Source of the DNA: Patescibacteria group bacterium
GTDB lineage: Bacteria; Patescibacteriota; Patescibacteriia; 2-01-FULL-39-33
Assembly: GCA_038065695.1 (NCBI GenBank)
Contig: JBBTQN010000020.1
Span: forward strand, 1-56,731
Length of the DNA: 56,731 nucleotides
Reading direction: 5' to 3'
Positions within the stretch are counted from its first letter, which is position 1, and each line of letters begins with the position of its first letter. Position numbers and translations under genes: made by a program. The notes beneath the pieces are model-generated. The model saw only the letters and a program-made list of their open reading frames with translations, had not been told where the DNA came from and made no database searches. Of the stretch, positions 2,974-53,852 are shown piece by piece.

Positions 2974-3022
2974 GGGTTTAATTTTTAAACTGATGTAATA
3001 ATTATATCAAGATATAATAAAT

Positions 3023-3058
3023 AAAAAAAGCCATCCGAGCGGGAGCGGGGATGGCGTG
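3023..3058 (-). repeat. GCCATCC..GGATGGC hairpin family, copy 1 (orphan; no minus-strand gene upstream of it)
   Basis: aaaaaaagccatccgagcgggagcggggatggcgtg. This is the same module as at 7016, 7704, 12234 and 17010. Confidence 0.7.
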
Positions 3059-3088
3059 ATTGGTTGAGGGTTTTAAATTTGACAAAAT

Positions 3089-4787: not shown

Positions 4788-4814
4788 CCCCAACTTTTTA
4801 GTTGGGGCTTTTTT
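4788..4814. terminator. Intrinsic terminator after the peptide gene
   Basis: Stem ccccaac/gttgggg, 6-nt loop, then cttttttat. It abuts the stop of the convergent MFS gene. Confidence 0.75.
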
Positions 4815-5997: not shown

Positions 5998-6104
5998 AAA
6001 TATGATAATTACCTTTTATAATTACTTTTTTTATATTGACAAATGATTAAAATTATTATATCCTATCTTTTGGGATTTGTATATTAAAAACAAGGAGAAA
6101 ACAC

Positions 6105-6911: not shown

Positions 6912-7015
6912 AATGATTTTGAGCTAAAGAAAAGTTTTTATACTTTCTTTAGCTTTTTTTGTTGTTTATTATGGTCACTATTGGAAAAAGTAATTTTTTA
7001 AATAGATTGAATAGA

Positions 7016-7054
7016 AAAAGCCATCCGAGCGGAAGCTGGGATGGCTTGTTGGTA
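7016..7054 (-). terminator. GCCATCC..GGATGGC hairpin family, copy 2 (terminator of 7107..7637)
   Basis: aaaaagccatccgagcggaagctgggatggcttgttggt. Read on the minus strand, this is a hairpin followed by a T-run. Confidence 0.7.
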
Positions 7055-7106
7055 TTAAAAACTGAAACTTGACATTCAAATCCTGAAATCAATTTAAAAC
7101 CGTGCA

Positions 7107-7637
7107 TTAAATCAGGTTTTCCAACCCCAATTCAGACAGTTTATTTTTCATAAGTTCATTTATCCTTTTTTCATTTGTTTGGTGATCGTCCGTGTCTGAA
7201 TAAGAACCAAGAAGATGAGTTATCTCATGAACTAAAACATGTTGCCACCATTCGTCATTATTAATGTCTCTTATTCGCACATAAACAGATGAAATTTTTG
7301 GATTGTAGCTTCCTCCCGGGCCGAACGGTACCAAGATAATATTATATTTTTTCGGTTCTGTCACTTTCAATTCTGCCGCCATTGATGTGGCGAATTTACT
7401 TCCAATTTCTTCCCACCACTTTTTTATTTTTGGAATTAAGGGTTGGATTTCTGTCTTCCAATCAGTTTGATTAAAAAATCTTATGGCCGCTTCAGGGTAT
7501 GTTTCATTTTTATTTTTTTCCGGCATTATCGGTTTTAATCCCCATTTTGAAAAATTACCGTTTTCAAAGTTTTTTACGGTTAATTCCAAGTCGTTCAATA
7601 TCGGTTCCAGGGAAATTATAATTAATATGTCGGGCAT
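7107..7637 (-). CDS. Hypothetical cytoplasmic HExxH (zinc metallopeptidase-like) protein
   Basis: The only recognisable motif is VLVHEITHLLG. No signal peptide. Confidence 0.5.
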   Translation of the reverse strand: MPDILIIISLEPILNDLELTVKNFENGNFSKWGLKPIMPEKNKNETYPEAAIRFFNQTDWKTEIQPLIPKIKKWWEEIGSKFATSMAAELKVTEPKKYNIILVPFGPGGSYNPKISSVYVRIRDINNDEWWQHVLVHEITHLLGSYSDTDDHQTNEKRINELMKNKLSELGLENLI

Positions 7638-7703
7638 AGTTAACAGGTATGTTTATTTGAATCTAATTTACCACAGATTTATTTTTTTATTAAGCGGAAT
7701 TTA

Positions 7704-7744
7704 AAAAAAGCCATCCGAGCGGAAGTTGGGATGGCTTGTTGGTG
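7704..7744 (-). terminator. GCCATCC..GGATGGC hairpin family, copy 3 (downstream of the FadL-like gene)
   Basis: aaaaaaagccatccgagcggaagttgggatggcttgttggtg. Confidence 0.7.
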
Positions 7745-7747
7745 TTT

Positions 7748-7784
7748 CCCCTCCTTTATTCAAGGAGGGGATTAAGGGGAGGTC
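7748..7784. repeat. CCCCTCC/GGAGGGG hairpin (half element)
   Basis: cccctcctttattcaaggagggg followed by attaaggggaggtc. This is the same head as the composite elements at 27229, 31259, 41018 and 55184. Confidence 0.6.
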
Positions 7785-8980
7785 TAAAATTTCCACGAGG
7801 CAGAAATGGAGCCGGTGAAAATGTCCGCTTCGTATTTGCCGGGAGCTCGCTTGCCCCAGCCGGGTTTGACTTCTCGGTCGCCCCAGCCGTAGGTGGCGCC
7901 GAAGTTGAAAGAGAAATTTTCTTTTTCATATTTTGCGCCCAAAGCCGCGCCCCAGCCACTGGTATCGGGAGTGAGCTGGCTTACGGTCGTGTCCGGAATG
8001 GCTTTGGTCATATAGCCAGTACCGGCGTTGACCGTCCAATAATCGTTTAACCGATAGCGCGCTCCGAGATGGATGCTCGCGTCGTCCCGCCAATCAAGAT
8101 TTTGTTTTTTCTTGAGTGGCAGGTCGTGGAAGCGAAGCGTCATCTCATTCACAGTGTTGGAGTAGCCCCACCAGTTGGCGTCTATGGCCAAAGTGAGGCG
8201 GTCGGTCGCTTGCCAAGCGATGCCGGCGCCGATTCGCGGCGGAAATGTGAACTCGCTGTCAAAGCCATCGCCGAAATTAAGCACTGTTGGCCCGATTTTA
8301 GTGAAGCCGATAAAATTGATTTTTGACTCGCTCATATAGGTGAGTCCGAGCGTCAATTTTTCTGTTGGCCGATACATTACACCGACAATGCCGCCGATTC
8401 CCCAGCCGTTGGCTTCGCTATCGGTCATGAGCGGAGTGAATTTATTTAAGATATCGTAAGGGGTTTTGTATTTGAATTGGCCCCAGCCGATATTTATTCC
8501 CGCGCCGACGCATAGCTTGTCGTTCAATTTCAGCGAGAGAGCTGGCGTGACATTGACGAGCCCGATCATCCCCTCGCTTTCCACGATTCCCGCTTTTAGG
8601 TCGCGACTGAATTTTCCGCCGAGTCCGTAGGGAGAGGTGATGCCAATTCCCCAATTCGCCCAGTCGTTAATCGGCGCGACAAATCCGAGGAGCGGCATCA
8701 GGTAAAAGACGCCATCGTCGGATTTTTGCGAGCCGCCTTTGGTGGTGATTTTAAATTTAGGCAAGACCAAGTCAACGCCGAAATCCGCGTAAGCCGAATC
8801 AAACCGCGACATCCCCGCCGGGTTGTAGTAGAAGAGCGACGCGTCATCCGCGATGGCGTTGTAGGCACCGCACATTGAGCCGGCATTGGGACCGAGCGAA
8901 TTATCAATCCGATTAACCCCGCCAGCCGTTGCCGGCAGGCAAAAAGCGCCAGCGATTAAAATTGAAAGAACGGTTCTCAT
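7784..8980 (-). CDS. FadL/OmpP1/TodX-like outer-membrane beta-barrel transporter
   Basis: Signal peptide MRTVLSILIAGAFCLPATAGG. It has an NPAGM motif near the N-terminus, alternating beta-strand patterning, many Gly and aromatic residues, and a C-terminal ...SASWKF with terminal Phe. Confidence 0.7.
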   Translation of the reverse strand: MRTVLSILIAGAFCLPATAGGVNRIDNSLGPNAGSMCGAYNAIADDASLFYYNPAGMSRFDSAYADFGVDLVLPKFKITTKGGSQKSDDGVFYLMPLLGFVAPINDWANWGIGITSPYGLGGKFSRDLKAGIVESEGMIGLVNVTPALSLKLNDKLCVGAGINIGWGQFKYKTPYDILNKFTPLMTDSEANGWGIGGIVGVMYRPTEKLTLGLTYMSESKINFIGFTKIGPTVLNFGDGFDSEFTFPPRIGAGIAWQATDRLTLAIDANWWGYSNTVNEMTLRFHDLPLKKKQNLDWRDDASIHLGARYRLNDYWTVNAGTGYMTKAIPDTTVSQLTPDTSGWGAALGAKYEKENFSFNFGATYGWGDREVKPGWGKRAPGKYEADIFTGSISASWKF

Positions 8981-9184: not shown

Positions 9185-10408
9185 ATGCCCAAAAGAAAGG
9201 CCATTGTCAGAATTAAAATTAAAAATAGAATTATTAGTGGTGTTTTTATTTCAGTTGCTATTATTATGGTGATTGTGGGTTTGAGTTTTTCCATTCCTTT
9301 ACTTTCAAATAAATTACCGGCCTCAATTTGTATCCCCGGTTTTGGTTGCTGGTCTTTTGAATTGCCGGTCCATTGCCTGTTTGGCCGGAATCCCAATTTT
9401 CTTTGGGGTGGTATGCTTGAATCGGTTTGGGGTCTTAATACAACCGATAGTCGCTGCCAAAAAAATTATTTTGAAGATTACGGCTATCATTATAACCCAG
9501 CCATTGAAAACTGTTCCTTACCGATACATACGGCTTGGTGCGGAAAAACTGATGAAGCCAAATACTATGATTGGCTTGGCTATTGCGTTTTGGCTTCAGT
9601 CCCTTATAACAACCCGCCTTGCTCCTGTCGCGACGGTACGATGGCAATGAGCGGCACCTTAAGTTCAATTGTCAGCGGTCGGGAAGGTTTTATCAGAACC
9701 ATAGGCCAAAAAACTTATGACAGCAGCTTTCCCGCTCAATTTCCTTTAATCACTGAAGAGGAGATTAAATTGTTTCAAGGCGTGATGAGCGGCTGTTTTT
9801 GCGGCCGCGGCCGAGGGACACTGCCCCAGCCCGGTTGGAAAAAAGATTTGACCCAGGACCCGTCCCAGGCGCAAATCGTATCTTCAGTAGTCTTGACCAG
9901 TAGCGGCGGTTCGGCCGGCTTTGTCAGAAATACCGTTCGCGGCCAGTATTATTTTATCAATAAAGCCGAAACGTTATTTGCCCTAATGGGAGGAAACATT
10001 GACCCGAAGTATCTTTCATATTCAGGAGAATGTACGCCATTACCTGCTGGCTGCCAGATAACGGATAGCTATACCACCGCCGGACATACCACCCCGGCTT
10101 CAGCTCATTATTTTGGCGCGGCTTTAGATATCAGTTGCGGTGAACCGGCGGTAGCTTCCGGAAACTGCACCGGTAAGACCCTTGAAGTTCTAAATAAAGT
10201 GATGAAGTATAATAATGGCTTTAATATTTTGCGCGAATGTAATCAAACTGAAAAGAGTTGTTGGAGTATTGGCGGAACAACCCAGATAATCCACATTGAT
10301 TTGAAAACCACCCGGGATGGTAGCCCGACTGATGGGAGACCCTGTTTGTTTACTGATTGCAATGCCAGGAATCCTGAAACCGATTGCGGTCCGGCCAATA
10401 CTCCGTAA
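9185..10408 (+). CDS. Membrane-anchored Cys-rich protein with a C-terminal LAS/M15-like zinc peptidase motif set
   Basis: N-terminal TM segment and about 20 Cys. The C-terminal ITDSYTTAGHTTPASAHYFGAALDIS and QIIHIDL resemble the SxHxxGxAxD ... H motifs of M15 D,D- or L,D-carboxypeptidase-like enzymes. Confidence 0.6.
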   Translation: MPKRKAIVRIKIKNRIISGVFISVAIIMVIVGLSFSIPLLSNKLPASICIPGFGCWSFELPVHCLFGRNPNFLWGGMLESVWGLNTTDSRCQKNYFEDYGYHYNPAIENCSLPIHTAWCGKTDEAKYYDWLGYCVLASVPYNNPPCSCRDGTMAMSGTLSSIVSGREGFIRTIGQKTYDSSFPAQFPLITEEEIKLFQGVMSGCFCGRGRGTLPQPGWKKDLTQDPSQAQIVSSVVLTSSGGSAGFVRNTVRGQYYFINKAETLFALMGGNIDPKYLSYSGECTPLPAGCQITDSYTTAGHTTPASAHYFGAALDISCGEPAVASGNCTGKTLEVLNKVMKYNNGFNILRECNQTEKSCWSIGGTTQIIHIDLKTTRDGSPTDGRPCLFTDCNARNPETDCGPANTP

Positions 10409-10492: not shown

Positions 10493-11017
10493 TTAGGGAC
10501 ACGCCTTTTGTCCCATGAGAAAGACCTTGTCTTTATTGGTCCATTTTTTTGGATCTAGCCGGATCCACGGCATATTTCCGAACAATTCTTTCTCATCTTG
10601 GGTCAGTTCTCTATTGCCCCATTGGCAGGCGGCTAAGTCTTTTTTCTGCCAGTCGGTCAAATTGTTCATATTAATCTGGCAATAAGCCCAGTAAGCCCAA
10701 AGCTGAGCCTCACCTTTGACCAAGAACTCGCAGTCCCGGATTGCTGACTTGTCTACGTTGACAAAGCGGAATTTTTCGCCAACAAACTTTCTGAAGTCTG
10801 CTGACATTGCTTCGACTTGGACTCGCAGAGCTTGTTTATCATTCAACGTTGTTGAAGGTATCCGACTAGCTTCTAGGACTTCAAACGCCTGATAGACGCT
10901 TTTGAAGTAGGCAAGGGCCCGGGTCTCGGTGGGGTCGACGGCGTAATGAGATCTCGCACAGCCGTAAATGGCCGTGCACGCCGTGAAGGCAATAAATACC
11001 ATCACAATCCTTTTCAT
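10493..11017 (-). CDS. Putative lipoprotein, paralog of 1488..2036
   Basis: Signal peptide with a lipobox-like AIYGC. Conserved blocks shared with 1488..2036 are listed under that feature. Confidence 0.6.
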   Translation of the reverse strand: MKRIVMVFIAFTACTAIYGCARSHYAVDPTETRALAYFKSVYQAFEVLEASRIPSTTLNDKQALRVQVEAMSADFRKFVGEKFRFVNVDKSAIRDCEFLVKGEAQLWAYWAYCQINMNNLTDWQKKDLAACQWGNRELTQDEKELFGNMPWIRLDPKKWTNKDKVFLMGQKACP

Positions 11018-11139: not shown

Positions 11140-12235
11140 CAAGTTCAATGATCAAGTGCAACACTTCGTGTATAATAGCATTTCAACTATTAAACATGGA
11201 GTTATATGGGAAAACAATATAAACAGTTGGATTTAAAAGAAAGAGAGCAACTTCATCTATTAATTTGGGACAAGCTATCGATTAGGCAAATAGCTAAAAT
11301 AATGGGTAGAAGCCCCTCGACAATCAGTCGAGAAATTGAGAGGAATACTCCACCCCTGGTCAGACGTTACACGCCCCATTTAGCCCAAGAAGCATACCAT
11401 GAACGCAAAGTGAAAGTCAGACAAAGGCCTCGTCTCAAAGATCCTTTGATTGTCGCTTACTTGATTGAGAAATTGAAACTGGATTGGTCGCCCGAGTTGA
11501 TTGCCGGCAAGTGGAGCAAGGATCATCCTAATCTGCCCATTAGCCATGAAGCGATTTACCAATACATCCACGCTTCAGCCAATCCGGGCGATGAGAATGA
11601 TTTGAGACCGTATCTTAGACGAAAACACAAGAGAAGAAAAAGAAAATATATACCTTTTAAAACCGTGAGAACCACGATTCCCGAGCGAATTGGCATCGAA
11701 ATGAGGCCACTGGCCGTGGCAGACAGAAGACAATATGGCCACTGGGAAGGCGACTCCGTAGAGTCCAGGCGAGAACAGAAAACTTGTTTAAGGACTTTAG
11801 TCGAAAGAAAATCAAGATATTTATGCGCAGTTAAAATTGAACGCAAGACAGCCGAATTAGCTTCGCAAGCGACGATTGATTTATTGGGTCGATATCCAAA
11901 ATCGATGCGACGCACCTTAACTCAAGATAATGGCACAGAGAATGCCAGCCACAAAATTATTACTCAAACCATCGACACCAAATGTTATTTTGCCAATCCA
12001 TACCGTTCCTATGAACGAGGCACTAATGAACAAACCAATGGATTAATCAGGCAGTATTTTCCAAAAGGAACTGATTTCAAACAAGCTTCAATCAAAGACA
12101 TTAGAGAGGCGGAAAGAAGGCTTAACGGCCGGCCAAGAAAAGTATTAGATTTTTACACCCCATCTGAAAAGTTTTATGAACTAATCACTAACCAAAATTT
12201 AGCGTTAGAAACTTGAATCCAGCATTTTATGATTA
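11140..12235 (+). mobile_element. IS30-family insertion sequence; the ends are not confidently defined
   Basis: Contains the IS30 transposase gene. I could align only weak terminal inverted similarity (left ..tgatcaagtgc.., right ..aaacttgaatc..). Confidence 0.45.
11206..12216 (+). CDS. IS30 family transposase
   Basis: N-terminal HTH (LSIRQIAKIMGRSPSTISREIERN). DDE region with HWEGDSV ... LTQDNGTENASH ... YERGTNEQTNGLIRQYFPKG. Confidence 0.9.
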   Translation: MGKQYKQLDLKEREQLHLLIWDKLSIRQIAKIMGRSPSTISREIERNTPPLVRRYTPHLAQEAYHERKVKVRQRPRLKDPLIVAYLIEKLKLDWSPELIAGKWSKDHPNLPISHEAIYQYIHASANPGDENDLRPYLRRKHKRRKRKYIPFKTVRTTIPERIGIEMRPLAVADRRQYGHWEGDSVESRREQKTCLRTLVERKSRYLCAVKIERKTAELASQATIDLLGRYPKSMRRTLTQDNGTENASHKIITQTIDTKCYFANPYRSYERGTNEQTNGLIRQYFPKGTDFKQASIKDIREAERRLNGRPRKVLDFYTPSEKFYELITNQNLALET

Positions 12236-12269
12236 AAAAAGCCATCCGAGTGGGAGCTGAGATGGCGTG
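12234..12269 (-). terminator. GCCATCC..GGATGGC hairpin family, copy 4 (terminator of the GNAT gene)
   Basis: aaaaaaagccatccgagtgggagctgagatggcgtg. Confidence 0.65.
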
Positions 12270-12277
12270 CCCTTAAA

Positions 12278-12787
12278 CTATTTTATTTCCAGAACCATTT
12301 TCAAAGTTTTTGGCAGGTTTCTATTTTCTGGGTATTTTTTTATTACTAATTTTTTAAATCCGGATTTTTTATAGCTTCGAATAGCTCTTGCGTTATCCGG
12401 CCTGACTTCAAAATAAATTTTAGTAATACCAAGCACTGTCGCTTTCTTAATAACCGATTGGATGGCTTTCGTGCCGTAGCCCTTGCCCCAGTATTTTTTT
12501 TCGCCGATAATGATTTGGGTTTCAAACCAGCTGTTTTTTCTTTTCGCCAAAGAAATGTGGCCTATCATTTTTTTATTTAAAGCTATAATGAAATGATGGT
12601 CGTTTTTATTTCCAAGCATTGCTAAAAAATATTTTTTCACTTCTTGGTCGGACAACCGTTTAAAGACCCCGCTCGTCAATTTAAGTAGCTCTTTATTCCT
12701 CCACCATTGAGAAAAATATTTTTCGTCCGAGGTTTTAAGTTTTCTTAGAGATATTTTAGGCATAGATTTATAAGTAAATAGTAGCAT
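12278..12787 (-). CDS. GNAT family N-acetyltransferase (RimJ/RimL-like)
   Basis: Acetyl-CoA-binding-like segment WGKGYGTKAIQSVIKKA, then RPDNARAIRSYKKSGFKK. Confidence 0.85.
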   Translation of the reverse strand: MLLFTYKSMPKISLRKLKTSDEKYFSQWWRNKELLKLTSGVFKRLSDQEVKKYFLAMLGNKNDHHFIIALNKKMIGHISLAKRKNSWFETQIIIGEKKYWGKGYGTKAIQSVIKKATVLGITKIYFEVRPDNARAIRSYKKSGFKKLVIKKYPENRNLPKTLKMVLEIK

Positions 12788-17009: not shown

Positions 17010-17043
17010 AAAAGCCATCCGAGCGGGAGCCGGGATGGCGTGG
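17010..17043 (-). terminator. GCCATCC..GGATGGC hairpin family, copy 5 (terminator of 17101..17706)
   Basis: aaaagccatccgagcgggagccgggatggcgtgg, followed by the hairpin cccctccttgttttaaggaggg at 17050..17071. Confidence 0.7.
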
Positions 17044-20380: not shown

Positions 20381-22009
20381 ATGAATATTTATATAATATC
20401 CACTCTGATAAATTTTTCTGCTAGTTTGTTTTTAGGTTTTTTTATTTTTTTTAGTAATAAAAAAGAAAGGGTTAATGTCTCTTTCTCACTTTTTTCTTTT
20501 AATGTAGCTTTTTGGAGTTTGGGTTATTATTTTTGGCAGATTTCTAATAATTCGTACTGGGCCTTATTTTGGTCTCGTTTTTTAATGGCAGGAGCTATTT
20601 TTATACCCTTAACCTATCTCTACTTTGTTTATTGTTTTACTGGTTTATTAAATAGAAGAAAGAAATTTTTAATTTTTAGTTTTTTTATTTTATTTATATT
20701 TTTTATTTTAAATTTTTCCTCTCTTTTTGTTAATAGAGTAGAACCATTATTAAATTTTAAATTCTGGCCGATAGCTGGGCCCGCTTTTTCCACTTTTTTA
20801 TTTATTTGGTTTTTTTATGTTATATACTCAACATATATACTTTATAAAAAATATATTGTAGCTGAGGGTATTTTTCGAATCCAAATAATATATATACTGG
20901 TTGGTATGGTTGTGGGTTTTATTGGCGGCTCAACAAATTATTTTTTATGGTATAAAATTCCCATTCCTCCGATAGCTAATATTTTAGTAGCTTTTTATGT
21001 TGTGGCGGTGGCCTATGCCATAATTAAACATCATTTAATGAACATTAAAGTTATTGCTACAGAATTATTTGCTGCTTTATTAATTTTGATAACTTTTATA
21101 CAAATATTTCAAACCTCCATTTATTCTATTGTGATTAGAATGGTGGTTTTTGTAATAACTACCACTTTTGCATTTTTATTAATCAGATCCGTTCTTTTAG
21201 AAGTCCATCGGCGCGAGGAAATGGAGCGCTTGGCTAAAGAGCTCCAGAAGACCACCAAGAAATTAGCCGCGGCGAATAAAGAACTCCAAAGGTTGGACGA
21301 GGCCAAGTCCGAATTCCTTTCCATCGCCAGCCACCAGCTCCGTACCCCCTTAACCGTCATTAAAGGTTATATCTCAATGATCCAGGAAGGCAGTTTCGGC
21401 CAAGTGCCGAAGCTCATCGGACAGAGCTTGGAAAAAGTGTACATTTCCACCGAACGGCTCATCGGCTTGGTGGAAAGTTTGCTTAATATTTCCCGCATTG
21501 AATCCGGGCGATTGGAGTTTGACATCAAGCCGTTTGATTTGGCCGAGACGGTCAAAGTGATCGTGGATGACTTTCAGTCAAAAGCAAAAGTCAAAAATTT
21601 AAAGCTTGAATTCCATAGCGAGCCGAATTTGCCGTCGGTTTCCGCCGACCCGCAGAAAATCAAGGAAGTCATTTCCAACCTGATTGATAATTCCATCAAA
21701 TACACCACCAAGGGTAGCATCATGGTCGGTCTGCATCAAGAAAGCCAATCAGTGGTGTTCGCTTGCCAAGACACGGGCATCGGCATTTTGCCGGAGGATT
21801 TGCCGCGGCTGTTCAATAAATTCACGCGCGGCAAAGGGATGATGCAGGTCTATACCGAAGGCACGGGACTGGGGCTTTATTTCGCCCGCATGGTTTTGGA
21901 AAACATGGGCGGCCGCATCTGGGCCGAGAGCGCCGGCAAAGGCAAGGGAAGCAAGTTTGCGTTTTCTCTGCCACTATCAGATAAATCGAAGGCCAGAAAG
22001 ATAAAATAG
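20381..22009 (+). CDS. Sensor histidine kinase with a multi-TM N-terminal sensor
   Basis: About 7 TM segments, a coiled linker, H-box SIASHQLRTPLT, and N/G boxes (NLIDNSIKYT, GTGLGLYFARMVLENMGGRIW). Confidence 0.9.
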   Translation: MNIYIISTLINFSASLFLGFFIFFSNKKERVNVSFSLFSFNVAFWSLGYYFWQISNNSYWALFWSRFLMAGAIFIPLTYLYFVYCFTGLLNRRKKFLIFSFFILFIFFILNFSSLFVNRVEPLLNFKFWPIAGPAFSTFLFIWFFYVIYSTYILYKKYIVAEGIFRIQIIYILVGMVVGFIGGSTNYFLWYKIPIPPIANILVAFYVVAVAYAIIKHHLMNIKVIATELFAALLILITFIQIFQTSIYSIVIRMVVFVITTTFAFLLIRSVLLEVHRREEMERLAKELQKTTKKLAAANKELQRLDEAKSEFLSIASHQLRTPLTVIKGYISMIQEGSFGQVPKLIGQSLEKVYISTERLIGLVESLLNISRIESGRLEFDIKPFDLAETVKVIVDDFQSKAKVKNLKLEFHSEPNLPSVSADPQKIKEVISNLIDNSIKYTTKGSIMVGLHQESQSVVFACQDTGIGILPEDLPRLFNKFTRGKGMMQVYTEGTGLGLYFARMVLENMGGRIWAESAGKGKGSKFAFSLPLSDKSKARKIK

Positions 22010-22024
22010 CGGGCAAATAAAATT

Positions 22025-22045
22025 CCGCCTGAAAGGCGGTTTTTT
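22025..22045 (+). terminator. Intrinsic terminator after the kinase gene
   Basis: ccgcc tgaaa ggcgg tttttt. Confidence 0.65.
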
Positions 22046-22098
22046 AAACTTTATAAAGTTTGCCTATTTTTGACAAACTTTATAAAGTTTGGTAACAT
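22046..22098 (+). promoter_or_regulatory. Promoter flanked and overlapped by two identical 16-bp palindromes (operator-like)
   Basis: AAACTTTATAAAGTTT occurs at 22046..22061 and 22075..22090. TTGACA at 22070, 17 nt spacer, TAACAT. Confidence 0.5.
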
Positions 22099-22119
22099 AC
22101 CAAAATGGGATAGGAGCAT

Positions 22120-23052
22120 ATGACCACGCAACAAAAACTTAAAACAATTCAAAAAATGCTGGGATTGACGCAGACCGAGTTGGCCAAGCGGTTTGGCGTG
22201 TCTTTTGTCGCCTTTAATAATTGGTGGACAGGCAAATCAGTCCCCCGGTCCAAAAAACATCTTATCATAGAGGATTTATTTCTGGAGGTTACCGGCCAAA
22301 AGATAATCCCAGCAGATCAGTTGGCCAGCAAAGAACGGGCTTTGCGCCAGAAATCATCCGAGCATAAAAATATTTTGCAAAAAATATTGGATAATCCGGA
22401 CATCCGCGACCAGTTCATCTTGAAACTTACCTATAACAGTAATCGCATTGAGGGTAGTACGCTTACCGAGCCGGACACGGCCGCCATTATTTTTGACAAT
22501 GTCGCTCTGCCCGACAAGAGCTTGACTGAACAGCTTGAAGCGAAAAATCATCAGGCGGCACTCTTGTATTTATTTGATTATATCGCTAAAAAAGGGATGA
22601 TTGACGAGGATTTGGTTTTAAAATTGCATGGTATTTTAATGAATGGCATCCGGTCGGACGCGGGCGTGTACCGCCGTCACGCGGTGAGGATCATCGGCGT
22701 CAATCTGCCTACGGCGAATTACATGCGAGTGCCCGATTTGATGCCGGCGGTCGTGAAGAGCGCGGCAAAAAGAAACAAAGATATAATCAGTCAATCGGCT
22801 GAAGTCCACAGCAAGTTTGAACAAATTCATCCATTTTCCGACGGCAACGGCCGTGTCGGCCGGTTGCTCATGAGCGCGATGCTGTTGAAGGCGAATTTTG
22901 CCCCCGCGATCATCCGGCAGGAGAAAAAACAGCTCTATTATATCTATCTTTTTAAAGCGCAAACCGGAAATGATTTTAGCCAATTGGAATATTTTATCTA
23001 TGAAGCAGTTATGGATGGATTTAGGATTTTGGAGCGGAAAGATATGGAATGA
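22120..23052 (+). CDS. Fic family protein with an N-terminal XRE-type HTH
   Basis: HTH LGLTQTELAKRFGVSFVAFNNW. Fic motif HPFSDGNGRVGRLL. Confidence 0.9.
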   Translation: MTTQQKLKTIQKMLGLTQTELAKRFGVSFVAFNNWWTGKSVPRSKKHLIIEDLFLEVTGQKIIPADQLASKERALRQKSSEHKNILQKILDNPDIRDQFILKLTYNSNRIEGSTLTEPDTAAIIFDNVALPDKSLTEQLEAKNHQAALLYLFDYIAKKGMIDEDLVLKLHGILMNGIRSDAGVYRRHAVRIIGVNLPTANYMRVPDLMPAVVKSAAKRNKDIISQSAEVHSKFEQIHPFSDGNGRVGRLLMSAMLLKANFAPAIIRQEKKQLYYIYLFKAQTGNDFSQLEYFIYEAVMDGFRILERKDME

Positions 23053-23053
23053 T

Positions 23054-23175
23054 GTTTGGAAAATATGGGCGGCCGCATCTGGGCCGAGAGCGCCGGCAAA
23101 GGCAAGGGAAGCAAGTTTGCGTTCAGTTTGCCTTTGGCGGATAAGACGAAGGCGAAGAAGATAAAAACGCAATAA
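23054..23175 (+). pseudogene. Orphan copy B of the histidine kinase 3' end
   Basis: Reads (L)ENMGGRIWAESAGKGKGSKFAFSLPLADKTKAKKIKTQ*. A run of about 59 bases is identical to 21905 onward in the intact kinase. Confidence 0.8.
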
Positions 23176-23187
23176 AAAAGATAATAA

Positions 23188-24192
23188 ATGTCAAAAGAAA
23201 TAAAAAATAAGCCGATTGGTGAAATAGTCATTTATCAGGACAGAGGCAAAAATATTAAAATTGAAACAAGATTTGAAAACGAGACCGTTTGGCTCAATCA
23301 AGAGCAGATTTCTTCATTATTTGACGCTGAAAGGAGTGTCATTACCAAGCATCTTGGAAATATTTTTAAGTCTGGCGAGCTGGATGAAAAAAGCAATGTG
23401 CAAAAAATGCACTTTGCAAATTCTGATAAATTGGTTAAATTTTACAATTTAGACGCGATAATTTCCGTAGGCTACCGCGTAAATTCCCGTCGCGCCACCC
23501 AGTTTCGGATTTGGGCGACAAATGTCGTTAAAAATCATATTATAAGGGGCTATACAATAAACAAAAGCAGAATTTCCGACTTGAAAGAGAGGCAATTGTC
23601 GGAATTGGAATCAGCCGTCTCTCTGATTAAGAAAACAATAGAAACCAAAAGGTTATCGGGCGCTGAAGAACGGGGGTTATTGCGAGTGATTACAGATTAT
23701 GCCAATTCTTGGGTGTTATTGCAGAAATATGACAAAAATGAATTAAAGTTGCCCGGAAAAGTTAAAATCGCTAAATTCAAACTCACTTGCCAAGAGACGG
23801 AGAATGCCATTTTTGAGTTTAAAGACAAGCTTATTTCCAAAAGGATAGCGTCCGATTTGTTCGGAGTCGAAAGAGACAAGTCGCTTTCGGGTATTATTGG
23901 AAATTTATACCAATCCTTTGGCGGCAAAGAACTTTATTTCAGTATTGAGGAGAAGGCGGCGCATTTGTTGTATTTTATCATCAAAGATCATCCGTTTATT
24001 GACGGCAATAAACGGATCGGTTCATTTTTGTTTATTTTATTTTTGGCGCGTAATAATTATCTTCTAAAAAAGAACGGGGAAAAGAAAATAAATGACAATG
24101 CTTTGGTCGCTTTGGCGCTACTGATTGCCGAAAGCGACGCGAAACAGAAGGAGGTCATCATAAAATTAATAATGAATTTTATTAACGGTTAG
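23188..24192 (+). CDS. RhuM-family N-terminal domain fused to a Doc/Fic-type domain
   Basis: The N-terminal ...SVGYRVNSRRATQFRIWATNV... is typical of RhuM-like proteins. C-terminal Doc-type motif HPFIDGNKRIG. Confidence 0.85.
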   Translation: MSKEIKNKPIGEIVIYQDRGKNIKIETRFENETVWLNQEQISSLFDAERSVITKHLGNIFKSGELDEKSNVQKMHFANSDKLVKFYNLDAIISVGYRVNSRRATQFRIWATNVVKNHIIRGYTINKSRISDLKERQLSELESAVSLIKKTIETKRLSGAEERGLLRVITDYANSWVLLQKYDKNELKLPGKVKIAKFKLTCQETENAIFEFKDKLISKRIASDLFGVERDKSLSGIIGNLYQSFGGKELYFSIEEKAAHLLYFIIKDHPFIDGNKRIGSFLFILFLARNNYLLKKNGEKKINDNALVALALLIAESDAKQKEVIIKLIMNFING

Positions 24193-24195
24193 CTC

Positions 24196-24349
24196 GCTTT
24201 ATTTCGCCCGCATGGTTTTGGAAAATATGGGCGGCCGCATCTGGGCCGAGAGCGCCGGCAAGGGCAAGGGGAGTAAGTTCGCTTTTAGTTTGCCGCTCGC
24301 GGACAAATCTCAATCGAAGAAAATAAAAACTTCTGCCCCCCAGCGATAG
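24196..24349 (+). pseudogene. Orphan copy C of the histidine kinase 3' end (longest and most diverged)
   Basis: Reads LYFARMVLENMGGRIWAESAGKGKGSKFAFSLPLADKSQSKKIKTSAPQR*. Within the conserved part, its differences from the intact copy are mostly synonymous third-position changes. Confidence 0.8.
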
Positions 24350-24369
24350 TCGCTAATTTTTATGAGCAT

Positions 24370-24416
24370 TTGACTATTTACCATAATTATGGTAATATTA
24401 TACCATAACTATGGTA
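24370..24416 (+). promoter_or_regulatory. Promoter with two palindromic operators upstream of the MNT/HEPN pair
   Basis: TTGACT, 17 nt spacer, TAATAT. Palindromes TACCATAATTATGGTA (24379..24394) and TACCATAACTATGGTA (24401..24416). Confidence 0.55.
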
Positions 24417-24971
24417 ATTATAAATTTTATGAATTTTAAAAGTGAGACAGAAAATAAGATATTGAATTATTTTTTTATCAACTCCAAGGCGAGGCATTAT
24501 ATCAATGAACTGGCGAGAATTTTGGTTCTTGACCCCAAAAATACCCATCGCAAATTGGTGGAATTGGAGAAACGGGGAATTTTAAAAAGCGAATTTCTGG
24601 GCCGGCAGAGGTATTTTTTTCTGGATTCTGACAATCAGCTGACCAAAAAGTATCGCTCGATTTTTTTTCAAACCGTCGGGTTGGAAGCGCGATTAAAGAA
24701 AATAGCGGCCATGAATAAAAAAATAAAATCGGCTTATATTTTCGGCTCATACGCGATTGACAAAATGGATGCTTCAAGCGACTTGGATCTATTGGTTATA
24801 GGGAGCCATTCTTCAATTGAGCTTCATAAAGCGTTTAATAAAATCCAGCAAGAAATCGGACGGGAAATAAACGTGATTGACTTCAATGAATCGGAATTCA
24901 GACTTAGAAAGAAAAGAGGGGATGGTTTTTTAAAGAATATTTTTTCTCAAAAAACAATCAAGATAAAATGA
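24411..24971 (+). CDS. Nucleotidyltransferase (MNT-like) with an N-terminal winged-helix domain; the start may be at 24429
   Basis: Minimal NTase motif GSYAIDKMDASSDLDLLVIG. The stop overlaps the next start (ATGA). Confidence 0.75.
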   Translation: MVIINFMNFKSETENKILNYFFINSKARHYINELARILVLDPKNTHRKLVELEKRGILKSEFLGRQRYFFLDSDNQLTKKYRSIFFQTVGLEARLKKIAAMNKKIKSAYIFGSYAIDKMDASSDLDLLVIGSHSSIELHKAFNKIQQEIGREINVIDFNESEFRLRKKRGDGFLKNIFSQKTIKIK

Positions 24972-25369
24972 TAATTTTTGAAGACGATTATTTCCGGTTG
25001 ACGAATTTTGATGCTAAGCAGATTGGAGAATATATTGACTCGGCAGAGAGGGATTTATCAATCGCCAAAGAGTCGGATATTCCCGAAGTGGTTTTTAGAT
25101 TTGCTTATGACGCGATGATAAAATTGGGTATTATTTTAATCGCTAAGCAGGGATATCGAGTGAGAAGCGCGCCGGGACATCATATCAAAATTATAGAAAA
25201 AATGAGTTTAATTGTGGGAGACGAAGATATTGGAATAATAGGCAATAAAATAAGACAAAAAAGGAATTTGGATTTATACAGTGGCAAATTGTCTTTCTCG
25301 GAAAAAGAGAGTAAAGAATATTTTAAATTTATTGAGAGTATTTTTAAGCAGGCGCGTAATTTATTTTAA
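24968..25369 (+). CDS. HEPN-domain-like protein, partner of the MNT
   Basis: 133 aa, helical, translationally coupled to the NTase. It has an RQKRNLDLY segment like the R..N..Y region of HEPN partners. This is a family call from memory. Confidence 0.55.
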   Translation: MIIFEDDYFRLTNFDAKQIGEYIDSAERDLSIAKESDIPEVVFRFAYDAMIKLGIILIAKQGYRVRSAPGHHIKIIEKMSLIVGDEDIGIIGNKIRQKRNLDLYSGKLSFSEKESKEYFKFIESIFKQARNLF

Positions 25370-25405: not shown

Positions 25406-27190
25406 TTATTTTTTTTCTTGGATTTCTTTTTTAATTTCTTCCACAAATTTTTCCAATTTCCGCGCCCCTAAATCTCCCTCGCCCCGTTTACGCACTGCCA
25501 CCGATTTTGAAACAGTTTCTTTTTCCCCGACCACCAAAATGTAAGGGGTTTTTTGTTTCTCGGCATTGCGGATGCGCTTGCCGAGTGATTCGTCGCTATC
25601 ATCTAGTTCGGCGCGGATGCCGGTTGATTTTAATTTTGATAGGACTTTTTCGCCCCAATCATTGAATTTTTCCGAGACCGGAATAATAACGACTTGAACC
25701 GGCGAGAGCCACGTCGGGAAGGCGCCGGCGTAATATTCAATCAAGAAGGCCATCACTCTTTCAATCGCGCCGATGGAAGAACGGTGGATGACAACCGCTT
25801 CTTGTTTTTTGCCTTTCTCATCAATATAGTTGAGCTCAAATCGCTTTGGCATGACAAAATCGTATTGGACGGTAAAAGCGGTGTCTTCTTTGCCGGCGAA
25901 ATTTTTTATCTGGATGTCAATTTTCGGGCCGTAGAAAGCGGCTTCACCTTCACTCTCAAAAAATGGCGCTCGGCGTTTTTTCAAAACCTCTCGCAAAATA
26001 TTTTCCGCGTTGTCCCAGGCCTTGTCGTCCTTGTAATATTTTTTTTCTTCTTTCCGGTCGCCGAGAGAGAGGCGATAACGGAAATTTTCTCCCTTTTTAA
26101 TCCCCATGACCGAGGCGACATATTCGATCAAATCCAAAGCTTCGTTGATTTGCTCTTTGGCTTGGTCAAGACGGCAGACAATATGGGAATCGGCCAGGCA
26201 GAAAGAACGTACGCGCATCAGGCCCGAGAGTTCGCCGGATTTTTCATAACGGAATTGTTTGGCCAACTCCGCGATTTTCAAGGGGAGCTCTTTGTAAGTG
26301 CGCGGCCGACTCAAGTACAGCTCAAAATGATGCGGGCAAGTCATCGGCCTTAAGATCAGTTCTTCATCGTCGATTTTCATCACCGGATACATTGAATCTT
26401 TGTAGTATGGATAATGGCCGGATTTTTTGTACAAATCCACTTTAGCCAAATCAGGCGTGTAGACATGCTGGTAGCCGCGTTTGATTTCTTCGTCAACGAT
26501 AAATCGTTCCAATTCCCGCCGGATGATAGAGCCCTTTTCGGTAAAAAGCGGCAAGCCCTTTCCGACGAGTTCGGAAAAAACAAAAAGGTCAAGGTCTTTG
26601 CCGATGACGCGATGGTCTCTTTTTTTGGCTTCCTCTAAAAGTTTTAAATAATCAGTCAGTTCTTGCTTGGTCTCATATGCCGTGCCGTAAATTCGTTGGA
26701 GCATTTTGTTTTTCTCGTCGCCGCGCCAATAAGCGCCGGCGATTTTCATCAACTTAAAATCTCCCAATTTTTTGGTGCTGGCCACGTGTGGCCCGCGGCA
26801 CAAATCTTCAAAATCGCCGACTGTGTAAAAACTCACTTTTTTTCTTGCCCCGTGTTTATCACCGGGGTCGCCGGCTTTTTGAAACTCTTTGATTAATTCA
26901 ATTTTGTATGACTGGCCCTTCATCTTCTTCAGCGCGTCTTCAATCTTTAATTCCGTTTTTTCAAATTTCAGATTTTTTTTAATCAGCTCCGCCATCTTTT
27001 TTTCAATTTTCGGCAGGTCGTCGGCGGAAAAGGTTTTATCTCCCAAATCAAAATCATAATAGAAACCATCTTCAATAGTCGGGCCGATGGCGAATTTTAT
27101 TTTATCACCAAAAAGCTCTTTGACCGCGTAGGCCAATATATGCGAAGTGGAATGGCGGATAATCTCCAGCTTATTTTGTTTTTGAGGCAT
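25406..27190 (-). CDS. thrS: Threonine--tRNA ligase (lacks an N-terminal TGS domain)
   Basis: HSTSHILA editing-domain motif, RPMTCPHH, and the class II core with HRSSIGAIERVMAFLIE. Confidence 0.95.
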   Translation of the reverse strand: MPQKQNKLEIIRHSTSHILAYAVKELFGDKIKFAIGPTIEDGFYYDFDLGDKTFSADDLPKIEKKMAELIKKNLKFEKTELKIEDALKKMKGQSYKIELIKEFQKAGDPGDKHGARKKVSFYTVGDFEDLCRGPHVASTKKLGDFKLMKIAGAYWRGDEKNKMLQRIYGTAYETKQELTDYLKLLEEAKKRDHRVIGKDLDLFVFSELVGKGLPLFTEKGSIIRRELERFIVDEEIKRGYQHVYTPDLAKVDLYKKSGHYPYYKDSMYPVMKIDDEELILRPMTCPHHFELYLSRPRTYKELPLKIAELAKQFRYEKSGELSGLMRVRSFCLADSHIVCRLDQAKEQINEALDLIEYVASVMGIKKGENFRYRLSLGDRKEEKKYYKDDKAWDNAENILREVLKKRRAPFFESEGEAAFYGPKIDIQIKNFAGKEDTAFTVQYDFVMPKRFELNYIDEKGKKQEAVVIHRSSIGAIERVMAFLIEYYAGAFPTWLSPVQVVIIPVSEKFNDWGEKVLSKLKSTGIRAELDDSDESLGKRIRNAEKQKTPYILVVGEKETVSKSVAVRKRGEGDLGARKLEKFVEEIKKEIQEKK

Positions 27191-27228
27191 ATTCTAAAAT
27201 TTTTAATTTTATAAATAAATTTAGTCTT

Positions 27229-27316
27229 CCCCTCCTTTCCAAGGAGGGGTTAGGGGAGGTTATGAAAGTCACGAATTACAGAATAACTTTCAAAACCCCT
27301 CTTAATCTCCCCTTGG
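27229..27316 (+). repeat. Composite CCCCTCC/GGAGGGG palindromic element (two hairpins plus spacer)
   Basis: cccctcctttccaaggagggg ttaggggaggt ...tgaaagtcacgaattac...actttca... tctccccttggagaggggaga. Confidence 0.75.
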
Positions 27317-27512
27317 AGAGGGGAGAAATTTTATTATTTAAAATCATATAATTATCTTATCAATTTCGCTTATTTCCGTCAATTTTTTAAATTCAGGCGG
27401 CGGCTATTGACTTTTCTTTGGTTTTTATTTAAAATGCGGGTAGTTATTGGTTCTTATCAATTAGCGGTTTAGCGTTTTTGTTGAAAAAACAAGGGAAATA
27501 CAAGCAAAAACA

Positions 27513-31169: not shown

Positions 31170-31258
31170 TAAATAAAATATTGAAAATATTTTATTAAAT
31201 TCCAAATCCCAAATTACAATTTCCAAATAAATTCCAAATTATAAATATTCATTAAATT

Positions 31259-31356
31259 TCTCCCCTTTCCAAGGGGAGATTAAGAGGGGTTTTGAAACTC
31301 ACTCTATAATTCGTGACTTTCATAACCTCCCCTAACCCCTCCTTAGAAAGGAGGGG
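31259..31356 (-). repeat. Composite CCCCTCC/GGAGGGG element, inverted copy of 27229..27316
   Basis: The reverse complement of the 27229 element aligns along its whole length, including the spacer (tttgaaa..taattcgtgactttcata). Confidence 0.75.
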
Positions 31357-31401
31357 AATTTGATTTGTAGATTTGTGGGAATTTTTCTATAATATACTCA
31401 T

Positions 31402-36478: not shown

Positions 36479-37243
36479 ATGAGTAAGAAAAGTGGAAATG
36501 TCCTGTTGAGTCCGGAGCAGAAGTTGGAGTTGGGTCTGGCGATGACTAAGGCGATACCTTGGGATATGTCCCCGGAATTGGCTCAGAAGTGTATTGGCAG
36601 TCGCTTTCTCAAAAGCGGCGTGCGGCAATTACTGATGCCATCAGAACCGGAAAGATCGATGGCAGTACTGGATGCCGACAGTGTCGTCGGTCAATTCGCC
36701 GAGGAGTGGGAGCGGCTCTACCGCGACAAGTTCGGCCTAACCGCTGACTTCTCGCAAGTTCGGGTGCCGGTTGTGCCCACAAATTTCAGCGGGTTCAACT
36801 GGCTGATGTTTGTAGCCAAGGGATTGACTCCCAACGCCGTGTACGCGGTTTGCGAGTCAATGTTTCCTTGCTACCGATACATATCGGATTTGGACGCGGC
36901 GGTGAAGGGCAGGAACGACCGCGAGCCGATCGAGCATTATGCCGTCTGGCTTCGCGACCGCGCGGAACCTGACGAAGAACTAAAAAAACTCTCGGCCAAT
37001 CAACTGGCGGCCTATGGCGTAGCAGGCAACACCTTATTGGAGGCGTTGCTTCTGGAGCCGTGGTATTTCTCCCGTTCCAAGGGCCAGCACCTCAATGTGG
37101 CCAATTGGAATTTGTGTAGTGGTTCGCGTTGCTCTGATGGCAGGGTCCCGCACGTCGGCTGGCGCGACGGCAAGTTTCGGGTTTATTGTTGCAGCTCTGA
37201 CGGTGCCAACGGCAATTTGCGGGCTCGCCTCGCAGTTTCCTAA
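36479..37243 (+). CDS. DGR target (variable) protein
   Basis: No signal peptide. The C-terminal 41 codons constitute the VR (SGSRCSDGRVPHVGWRDGKFRVYCCSSDGANGNLRARLAVS). Confidence 0.8.
   Translation: MSKKSGNVLLSPEQKLELGLAMTKAIPWDMSPELAQKCIGSRFLKSGVRQLLMPSEPERSMAVLDADSVVGQFAEEWERLYRDKFGLTADFSQVRVPVVPTNFSGFNWLMFVAKGLTPNAVYAVCESMFPCYRYISDLDAAVKGRNDREPIEHYAVWLRDRAEPDEELKKLSANQLAAYGVAGNTLLEALLLEPWYFSRSKGQHLNVANWNLCSGSRCSDGRVPHVGWRDGKFRVYCCSSDGANGNLRARLAVS
37118..37240 (+). repeat. DGR variable repeat (VR)
   Basis: 123 bp, colinear with the TR. My alignment gives 18 mismatches, 17 of them opposite TR adenines. Confidence 0.85.
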
Positions 37244-37525
37244 CCCTTCGTTCCCTTTTTAACTTTAACCCTAAACCACAGTGCTGTGTTGATTTTTCAA
37301 TATGGCACTTTTCTTTTATAATAAAATAAGGTTAATATAATCAGTCCTGCCCTTCGCGAAGGGTAGGACAATGGTTTACCTTTAAATTTAGGAAACTGCT
37401 TATCCAATTCTGGCGGACAGCTATTTTTTAAAATAGTCAGTCCCAAACAGAGCCGGCTAAGAGCCGGAAAACCCAGGCGATTTTATATAAAATTGCCGGT
37501 GCGAATGATGGAATTGGATGATATA

Positions 37526-37648
37526 AGTGGTTCGCGTTACTCTGATGGCAATGTCCCGAACGTCAACTGGAACGACGACAAGTTTCAGGTTAATTGTAAC
37601 AACTCTGACAATGCCAACGACAATTTGCGGGCTCGCCTCGAAGTTTCC
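37526..37648 (+). repeat. DGR template repeat (TR)
   Basis: Adenine-rich (AAC/AAT codons) at exactly the positions that vary in the VR. The 3' GC-rich segment gcgggctcgcctcg is shared with the VR. Confidence 0.85.
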
Positions 37649-37661
37649 GGCAGAGAAAGTC

Positions 37662-38018
37662 CTATTTCGGACTTTCTTTTGCTATCCAATTGAGCCAATC
37701 AGTATTCATTTTGGAAATTTCAATCAGCCGGCCCTCAAGGCCAAGATAATTTTTTCCATTTATAATATTTGATTCATTGGCTAGCCGTACTAATTGTTTT
37801 AGCACCTCAATTTTTATGCGCAAAATTTTTAAATGATCTGACTTTTCGTTTTTCGGCAAATAGGCGGCAGTGATTGATAGCTCCAGCGATTCCAGACACA
37901 TATTTTCTATCTTTAAGCCAAGACTGAAACGATCCCTCTTGTTTATTTGCTTATTATTTTGATAAATTAGTTTATAAAAATCAGTTATCTTATGAATCAG
38001 AGGAATATTATTAGACAT
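37662..38018 (-). CDS. Four-helix-bundle protein, Avd-like DGR accessory candidate
   Basis: 118 aa, helical, resembling the S23-ribosomal/four-helix-bundle family. It lies between the TR and RT but on the opposite strand. Its 5' end overlaps the RT start by 27 nt. Confidence 0.65.
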   Translation of the reverse strand: MSNNIPLIHKITDFYKLIYQNNKQINKRDRFSLGLKIENMCLESLELSITAAYLPKNEKSDHLKILRIKIEVLKQLVRLANESNIINGKNYLGLEGRLIEISKMNTDWLNWIAKESPK

Positions 38019-53846: not shown

Positions 53847-53852
53847 TATTTT

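Follow-up and report, generated by a model that had tools for sequence, protein, structure and literature searches.

How accessory and defence genes enter genomes without any apparent mobility enzyme has been an open question since 2000, when restriction-modification (RM) genes were found to show "insertion with long target duplication" (Nobusato et al. 2000; Furuta, Abe & Kobayashi 2010, PMC2853133). RM genes are found inserted with target duplications of 30-420 bp and no mobility genes, mostly in naturally competent species, by a mechanism that is unknown (PMC2853133). Here we ask how two genes came to lie at the end of a histidine kinase gene in the 56,731-nt contig JBBTQN010000020.1 from a Patescibacteria group bacterium, the whole of which we call the window. 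The last 112-135 nt of the kinase gene are present there as three copies in direct order, which we name A, B, and C, split by a gene for an HTH-Fic protein and a gene for a RhuM-Doc protein. The locus represents a rare and mechanistically unsolved mode of gene movement, and we give roughly even odds (about 0.5) to the reading that two cassettes were inserted successively by general homologous recombination with imported alleles of the kinase tail, in the pattern of insertion with long target duplication. What is new here is that the flanking copies appear to be imported alleles, which favours homologous recombination with donor DNA that carried a kinase tail and offers a testable mechanism.

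Three ends of one kinase gene

A repeat search placed the copies at 21874-22006, 23034-23166, and 24196-24328, spaced 1160 and 1162 nt apart, and a self-comparison of the region recovered all three in direct order at 85-88% identity. By self-blastn, A and C were 87.7% identical over 114 nt (E 2e-34), A and B 86.6% over 112 nt (E 9e-32), and B and C 85.1% over 114 nt (E 4e-30); the boundaries obtained by alignment are listed in Table 1. Copy B starts 1-2 nt past the Fic stop codon (TGA, 23050-23052) and copy C 4 nt past the RhuM-Doc stop codon (TAG, 24190-24192). All copies keep the kinase reading frame, contain no frameshifts, and end in their own stop codon near the normal position, each with a different basic tail: SDKSKARKIK in A, ADKTKAKKIKTQ in B, and ADKSQSKKIKTSAPQR in C (the A-type tail allele reads …LSDKSKARKIK and the B-type …LADKTKAKKIKTQ). 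An exact run of 59 nt is common to A and B (21905-21963), with divergence on either side. These results bear out the initial annotation, which had described three kinase ends with the Fic and RhuM-Doc genes between them, copies starting within a few bases of the preceding Fic-type stop codon and ending in their own stop codons and distinct basic tails, and about 59 identical bases shared by B and the intact gene. The two units are nearly equal in length although their cargo genes differ by 72 nt, and we treat this as coincidence. A read-through fusion of Fic with copy B was also considered, as the two share a frame across the TGA; the frames of RhuM-Doc and copy C differ, so this too appears to be a coincidence.

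The window is a contig from a Hainich aquifer groundwater metagenome, and its closest genomes are Ca. Buchananbacteria (Patescibacteria, or candidate phyla radiation, CPR). It is identical to ENA ERZ1292629 Hain_H43_01um_R1_193 (L002; here and below, L numbers denote individual contigs or loci). A contig from a second sample (L001, ERZ1292638) differs from the window by 1 nt across 21.6 kb and has the same three copies, and all six of the contigs with the exact kinase protein, among the matches listed, carry the same array. The next nearest kinase relative is only 68% identical. Because the same structure occurs in the second-sample contig, and because the copies are too divergent (85-88%) for an assembler to collapse or expand them, we conclude that the array is not an assembly artefact.

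The two cargo genes differ in their regulatory surroundings. Each cassette had been thought to bring its own operator-bearing promoter, and this description holds for the Fic gene, which has a promoter together with two perfect 17-nt palindromes at 22046-22090, a probable operator for the HTH-Fic protein. It does not hold for the RhuM-Doc gene: only 12 nt separate its ATG from the end of copy B, and nothing resembling a promoter was found in between. Direct reading of the HTH-Fic sequence identified the Fic motif HPFSDGNGRVGR and an N-terminal SNRIEG resembling an inhibitory helix, and RhuM-Doc carries the Doc-type motif HPFIDGNKR.

Relatives of the kinase gene keep the same synteny, in which the kinase converges on the threonyl-tRNA synthetase (ThrRS) gene, followed by the genes for arginyl-tRNA synthetase and a response regulator, and most of them have a single kinase end. 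Five (L030, L031, L032, L034, and L035) have only ~100-134 nt between the kinase and ThrRS stop codons, a gap that is the empty site. In L005 and L036 the kinase is directly followed by homologues of the window's MNT and HEPN genes (62-65% identity), and the spacer between the kinase stop codon and MNT in L005, including its TACCATAAnTATGGTA palindromes, aligns with the DNA 3' of copy C. Because copy C is still attached to the DNA that follows the intact kinase in L005, it is the displaced original kinase end, and the 2.3 kb between A and C is inserted DNA. The MNT gene and its small partner (24411..25369) are a resident downstream pair, found directly 3' of the kinase in L005 and L036 as well. 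The interval thus varies within the clade between an empty site, an MNT/HEPN pair, and the array, and both this variation and the context of copy C support the earlier proposal that successive insertions, each supplying a replacement 3' end, displaced the older ends. One relative with two matches to the kinase core, L042, proved to have two full paralogous kinases and no array.

A different arrangement was seen in the kinase-ThrRS interval of L008, which holds a gene of 128 aa with 34-nt direct and inverted copies around it (9642-10188); from its sequence, this gene was assigned to the "23S rRNA-intervening-sequence protein" family. A gene of that family at 53853-54197 of the window is bracketed by inverted repeats of ~50 nt (53808-54227).

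Table 1. Features of the kinase locus, in window coordinates
Feature	Position	Strand	Basis
Histidine kinase gene, intact; insertion target	20381..22009	+	Pfam HisKA_7TM+HisKA+HATPase_c; orthologues and conserved synteny
Tail copy A, current kinase 3' end (LYFARMVLENMGG...SLPLSDKSKARKIK, then stop)	21874..22009	+	Repeat search, alignment
35-nt core identical in A, B, and C, candidate crossover region	21905-21939; B 23065-23099; C 24227-24261	+	Alignment
Intrinsic-terminator-like hairpin and T run directly 3' of copy A	22025..22045	+	Hairpin 22025-22039
Fic promoter TTGACA-17-TAACAT, flanked/overlapped by two AAACTTTATAAAGTTTG palindromes	22046..22098	+	Repeat and promoter search
HTH-Fic gene, cargo of cassette 1, 310 aa	22120..23052	+	Pfam PF02661, translation
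Tail copy B, displaced kinase end (CLENMGG...SLPLADKTKAKKIKTQ, then stop)	23054..23175	+	Repeat search, alignment
RhuM-Doc gene, cargo of cassette 2, 334 aa	23188..24192	+	Pfam PF13310+PF02661 (Virulence_RhuM+Fic)
Tail copy C, displaced original end joined to native downstream DNA	24196..24349	+	Alignment, relatives
Spacer homologous to that between kinase stop and MNT in L005; contains a promoter-like site and TACCATAAnTATGGTA palindromes	24350..24410	+	Alignment
MNT nucleotidyltransferase gene	24411-24971	+	Pfam NTP_transf_2/Polbeta
Small MNT partner ORF	24968-25369	+	No Pfam match; HEPN-like by position as MNT partner only
ThrRS gene, conserved convergent right flank	25406..27190	-	Pfam; synteny in relatives

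Allelic tails and the route of insertion

The differences among the copies carry information on where they came from. Across the conserved 27-34 codons we counted 11 synonymous and 0 non-synonymous differences between A and C, 8 and 0 between A and B, and 9 and 0 between B and C, with no indels; the initial annotation had already remarked that copy C differs mainly at synonymous positions. Decaying orphans would be expected to show ~60% non-synonymous changes, and under that expectation 11 synonymous differences out of 11 have P ~4e-5. The three copies are each other's closest relatives (86-90% at the nucleotide level), and their amino-acid core LENMGGRIWAESAGKGKGSKFAFSLPL was seen in no other lineage sampled. 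Given that the core differences are all synonymous, that no frameshifts occur, and that the stop codons lie near the normal position, the tail ends appear to have diverged inside working kinase genes of related lineages and to have been united recently, and not to be decaying duplicates. Because they are mutually closest and share a unique core, their donors would be close relatives. Most simply, every insertion would have carried in a kinase end that had evolved in a working gene of a closely related lineage, and the displacements would be of recent date; copies 85-88% identical with only synonymous core differences would then be imported alleles. The identity of A and B in the middle of the tail, between divergent flanks, is as expected around a crossover inside the tail.

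Kinase tails were also repeated at two other loci, so that the same kinase gene appears to have been hit recurrently in three lineages of the CPR, a group with small genomes. The first (L046, JGI Ga0265296_1001782, Buchananbacteria) has tails at 4808-4988, 7955-8014 (partial), and 10584-10764; the last of these, a full orphan, is 94% identical to its kinase end, with 10 synonymous and 1 non-synonymous differences in the core codons and five further non-synonymous ones in the last two codons. Between the tails lie two blocks of cargo, one radical-SAM/SPASM and the other S41-peptidase/HD/GNAT, and ThrRS comes next. In the second (L018, Ca. Giovannonibacteria), where the kinase is only ~45% identical, the tail at 1057-1161 recurs at 7099-7204 (the last 31 codons) after ~6 kb of cargo, with 14 synonymous and 3 non-synonymous differences, and the orphan begins immediately past the TAG of a C39-peptidase-like gene. 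The kinase end had been described as a hotspot for toxin or defence cassettes. The variability of the kinase-ThrRS interval agrees with a hotspot, but these two arrays carry different cargo (radical-SAM, S41 peptidase, HD, GNAT, HisRS, and C39-peptidase genes), and the toxin or defence part of that description does not extend to them.

We propose the following course of events for the window. Two small cassettes would have entered the kinase gene in turn, within its last ~120-150 nt, each of them a gene that came with its own allele of the final 35-45 kinase codons. Recombination in the shared kinase sequence would have put the imported end onto the kinase, which would stay intact, and would have left the resident end orphaned downstream. 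The newest cassette would then adjoin the kinase body, placing RhuM-Doc first and HTH-Fic second in the order of arrival: C is the original end, B would have come with RhuM-Doc, and A would have come with Fic, on the right-hand side of a crossover within the 59 nt shared by A and B. Copy B itself would be a composite, its left part from the Fic cassette and its right part from the RhuM-Doc cassette. RhuM-Doc, being promoterless, would be read through from the upstream kinase, and Fic would have brought its terminator, promoter, and operator.

The joining itself would be the work of the cell's general homologous recombination, with no dedicated integrase. The DNA could have entered as a circular or permuted molecule of kinase tail plus gene from a related strain, by a single crossover ("ends-in", Campbell-type), or alternatively as a tail-gene-tail donor fragment recombining within the tail. 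Uptake might have been by natural competence, which has been shown experimentally in Patescibacteria (Saccharibacteria; PMC10633639), and the direct repeats could release a cassette as a ~1.16-kb circle for the next transfer.

Several points weigh against this proposal. The 35 nt that A, B, and C share without a mismatch are just as compatible with the core of an att site; our view covers 56.7 kb of the genome, and a recombinase could act in trans from elsewhere; and the evidence consists of assembled contigs without close relatives, the nearest kinase being 68% identical. Random breakage would give less orderly joints than those at four of five junctions, where the orphan starts 0-4 nt past the cargo stop codon, a hint of either a dedicated process or strong streamlining. 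Homologous recombination accounts for spread among genomes that already share the tail, but not for the first linkage of a gene to a tail; the origin of that first tail-bearing cassette is something that we infer, as are the order of events, the recombination step, the circle, and the uptake. Finally, a purely host-driven mechanism does not predict the strong association with RhuM-Doc genes that is described below. Because the first linkage, the tidy junctions, and the RhuM-Doc enrichment are left unexplained, we kept three rival explanations: a recombinase acting in trans, duplication of the target in place, and mobility driven by the cargo.

The first of these draws on a well-known class of elements. 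Integrase elements that enter the 3' ends of protein genes with a replacement end include phage 21 and e14 in icd of E. coli and, at fda in streptococci, ICESt3, together with the accretion of cis-mobilizable elements (CIMEs). Such elements provide a substitute 3' end with synonymous differences, leave the displaced end on the far side, and accrete in tandem, integrase-less CIMEs among them. At our locus, a recombinase encoded elsewhere would have integrated non-autonomous, CIME-like cassettes whose attP included the kinase 3' end, with crossover in the 35-nt core and tandem accretion as at tRNA genes or streptococcal fda. The exact core in all three copies fits this explanation, as does the classical integrase footprint of an intact gene with a restored reading frame, a replacement end, a displaced end on the far side, and tandem accretion, and a visible genome portion of only 56.7 kb leaves room for such an enzyme.

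However, Pfam scans of all major ORFs of the window found no tyrosine or serine recombinase, in agreement with the initial annotation, which had seen none in or beside the array; the relevant matches were an IS30-like DDE transposase, the reverse transcriptase of a diversity-generating retroelement (DGR), and RuvA only. No recombinase was found in L046 or L018 either, by precomputed or new Pfam matches (called genes and scans). The units are single-gene and only ~1.16 kb long, unlike the known elements, and the orphans' left boundaries are all different, at about -120, -150, -170, and -93 nt from the stop codon. Moreover, an equivalent of the 35-nt core is not included in the L018 repeat or in the middle copy of L046. 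With boundaries that differ and a repeat that excludes the core, homology-driven joints fit better than one fixed att site, and the integrase-type element implied by the initial annotation is not shown. In addition, the repeats that flank RhuM-Doc relatives (21-155 nt) are unrelated to one another, as are their targets, one of which is the 5' end of a downstream gene; a single site-specific enzyme would not produce such a range. We therefore consider a recombinase in trans unlikely, though still a serious candidate.

Other kinds of machinery were considered and rejected. An integron or CALIN cassette array (a cluster of attC sites lacking an integrase) is contradicted by the lack of a conserved attC-like fold, of GTTRRRY at the junctions read, and of a detected integrase; no conserved hairpin was found in the tails, as folding of both DNA strands gave z ~0 for A and C and the hairpin of B is private to it. 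Mismatches among A, B, and C are of all types and not adenine-specific, which speaks against a DGR origin. The IS30-like transposase (11206-12216) lies 9 kb upstream, and the repeat search found no inverted repeats bounding the cassettes. A search for a donor phage or plasmid gave 0 matches to the kinase core pattern in IMG/VR. Viral relatives numbered none for Fic and three for RhuM-Doc, one of them L050 (below), and GenBank phages matched RhuM-Doc at the N-terminal RhuM domain only.

RhuM-Doc genes between direct repeats

RhuM-Doc belongs to a widespread toxin-type family, and we compared its genes with other ORFs for the presence of flanking direct repeats of adjacent sequence. RhuM-Doc relatives were fetched regardless of repeats, and the same test was applied to 475 ORFs (100 aa or longer) from every locus fetched by then; L064 and L070 were fetched later, tested separately, and added to the tally. 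Seven of the 475 ORFs were positive, namely four RhuM-Doc/Doc genes, the window's Fic gene, and two others, one of which (window ORF 7107-7637) is explained by a multi-copy intergenic hairpin and not by a cassette footprint. In total, such repeats flanked RhuM-Doc/Doc genes in 5 of 10 independent contexts, compared with 3 of 467 other ORFs (Fisher P 1e-6 to 7e-8).

The repeats themselves vary widely. That of the window's RhuM-Doc gene is 114 nt long (85% identity). In L050 (IMGVR_UViG_3300047561_001846, 3465-4373) a Doc-only gene at 3627-4217 lies in a perfect direct repeat of 155 nt, which takes in the final ~70 nt of the preceding gene (70 aa) and the spacer as far as the following ribosome-binding site; the unique insert is a bare Doc ORF that matches the C-terminal half of RhuM-Doc from the window at 51% identity. 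A 485-aa ORF in L050 (1707-3164) reads as a large terminase, and we take the contig to be of phage origin. The repeat in L053 (Parcubacteria scaffold, 4923-6076; 45 nt, 98%) is the 5' end of a downstream UDP-glucose dehydrogenase gene, whose duplicated head shows an in-frame allelic difference. In L058-L063 it is 21 nt long (90%) and consists of the last codons and stop codon of femAB, and in L070 it is 55 nt long (94.5%) and takes in the stop codon of the cargo. In the window, L050, L053, and L058, no more than 1-19 nt of unique DNA accompany the ORF between the repeats.

Two further loci bear on the edge of the gene. L064 and L066 (JGI Ga0484788_000074 and Ga0376493_001710) share the same RhuM-Doc protein and downstream DNA, while the DNA upstream of the ATG differs completely, and contigs from several samples break off ~122 nt before this gene. 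These sequences suggest that the 5' edge of the ORF is a recombination breakpoint. A separate 1132-nt Logan contig, L054, contains only the RhuM-Doc gene of the L053 type, and its ends overlap by 23 nt; it is either a repeat-induced assembly break or a circle.

Taken at their strongest, these findings raise the potential that RhuM-Doc/Doc genes, and possibly HTH-Fic genes, are ORF-sized selfish mobile genes, the bare frame of which moves to the ends of host or phage genes and there duplicates or replaces a variable stretch (20-160 nt) of the neighbouring gene end, in the absence of a transposase or integrase and by way of the encoded protein or the damage that it causes. We hold this general claim to be decidedly doubtful. 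Irrespective of it, the enrichment for repeat-flanked, ORF-precise insertions in bacteria and an apparent phage makes RhuM-Doc a model gene for experiments.

Alternatively, the target may have been duplicated in place, either by staggered breaks ~110-160 nt apart that were filled after capture of a fragment or by a template switch in replication, with divergence following later. The L050 copies, identical over 155 nt around what is essentially a bare Doc ORF, look like the product of such an event, a range of repeat lengths (21-159 nt) is expected of break repair, and the phenomenon takes its name in the RM literature from a duplication of this kind (PMC2853133). Nevertheless, the 8-11 core differences per pair in the window are all synonymous and without indels, whereas an orphan free of constraint should gain mostly non-synonymous changes. 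The mostly synonymous pattern recurs in L046 and L018, and the window copies end at different stop codons. We consider duplication in place improbable as the origin of the array.

It is also possible that the cargo itself drives the insertions, with RhuM-Doc, and perhaps HTH-Fic, acting as a selfish gene that promotes or selects its own insertion at gene termini, for instance through toxin-induced breakage and repair or post-segregational killing. The flanking repeats that abut the ORF in half of the RhuM-Doc/Doc contexts, the near absence of other unique DNA between them, and the identical proteins with different DNA directly upstream of the ATG in L064 and L066 are what such a gene would leave behind. 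Yet a nuclease or recombinase domain is neither known nor detected by Pfam in RhuM-Doc and Fic proteins, the L046 and L018 arrays share the architecture without a Fic or Doc gene, and the enrichment could stem from better retention of addictive genes. That the cargo moved itself into the window's kinase gene would therefore be surprising.

Two further explanations carry little weight. The copies could be spare ends for programmed switching of the kinase's basic C-terminus by recombination between copies, as they differ mainly in the last ~10 residues and keep their frames intact, but direct repeats would lead to irreversible deletion of the cargo, no invertase was found, and most relatives have a single end, which makes this very improbable. 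Scarcely credible is a chimera of kinase ends from co-existing strains, for even in a metagenome with many related CPR populations, two samples gave the identical structure (a single mismatch across 21.6 kb), the copies reach no more than 85-88% identity and have unique genes between them, and analogous structures occur in JGI, NCBI, and IMG/VR records from different pipelines.

Known systems and other features of the window

Insertion by homologous recombination with imported tails shares most of its outward features with the long target duplications of RM genes (PMC2853133). In both, direct repeats longer than 30 bp (112-135 nt in the window) correspond to a single copy at the empty site of relatives, the inserts are below 20 kb and have no mobility gene (1.16 kb and one gene each in the window), and the repeats may overlap the 3' end of an adjacent gene, as some RM repeats do. 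The window differs in its cargo, which is Fic and RhuM-Doc and not R/M, in its CPR host, and in the stacking of two insertions at one site. Its repeats are also alleles 85-88% identical and not near-identical target copies, unlike those of L050, which are 100% identical over 155 nt. With this cargo, the window falls outside the RM-specific definition while its architecture matches.

Orphan C-terminal modules downstream of toxin genes are familiar from rhs and cdiA loci. They have likewise been described for tpsA (PMC3848433). As in the window, a new 3' end and a linked gene replace the old ones, the orphan keeps a conserved upstream stretch, and tandem arrays form; the window differs in that its target is a histidine kinase, its variable part spans ~10 residues only, and neither linked gene provides immunity against it. 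An Rhs/CdiA-type orphan array was accordingly rejected, the main gene being a 7TM histidine kinase and the orphans its HATPase_c end. In genome annotation, a short orphan "HATPase_c" ORF, or a comparable fragment of another gene's end, can serve as a sign that a gene has recently been gained.

Modular shuffling by promoter early stem-loop (PeSL) elements in T4-type phages proceeds through repeat-mediated mini-circles (Arbiol et al. 2010, PMC2839356). There too, single genes lie between short homologous repeats, circles carry a gene elsewhere, and the module has no dedicated recombinase, but PeSL repeats are dispersed promoter and terminator motifs, whereas the repeat in the window is the coding end of one host gene. 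In Campylobacter, a pcp-mediated circular intermediate is re-inserted by homologous recombination (PMC10770853), and the microcin H47 island is excised between direct repeats without a recombinase (PMC5426353). Both resemble the proposed cassettes in forming an excision product or circle between direct repeats without an element-encoded site-specific recombinase; they differ in organism and cargo, and involve no gene-end replacement.

The window contains a second repeat of a gene 3' end, which has a different and known cause. It belongs to a genuine DGR at 36479-38543, with the variable repeat at 37118-37240 and the template repeat at 37526-37648: the 3' end of a 254-aa gene recurs 408 nt downstream at 85% identity, and 17 of the 18 mismatches fall at adenines of the template repeat. 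Next to it lie bAvd (37662-38018, minus strand) and an RVT_1 ORF (37992-38543) of 183 aa only, so the reverse transcriptase may be truncated or frameshifted.

Adjoining the IS30-like transposase (HTH_38 and rve; region 11206-12787) is a gene for a GNAT acetyltransferase that is 66% identical to the GNAT protein encoded inside the L046 array. The family is 70-79% conserved across many CPR lineages, a level of conservation that suggests horizontal mobility. On the minus strand at 7784-8980, in a stretch of 52% GC, lies a gene for a FadL/TodX-type outer-membrane transporter (Toluene_X, E 6e-46). Such a beta-barrel is unexpected in CPR, and it may be foreign DNA, or the left part of the contig may be mis-binned or chimeric.

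An Rfam scan of the whole window matched no family, and two further repeats were found outside the array. One is an element of ~120 nt present at 27227-27344 and 31238-31358, the two copies 91% identical and mutually inverted, upstream of ThrRS (minus strand) and of a response regulator gene (plus strand) and in leader orientation in both; it contains two C-rich/G-rich hairpins (CTCCCCT..AGGGGAG and CCCCTCCTT..AAGGAGGGG) and likewise has no Rfam match. The other is the conserved intergenic hairpin AAAAAGCCATCCGAGCGGRAGCNGGGATGGC, with five copies (3022-3064, 7012-7056, 7702-7746, 12235-12269, and 17010-17042), all in the first 17 kb, a terminator-like or REP-like (repetitive extragenic palindromic) repeat family.

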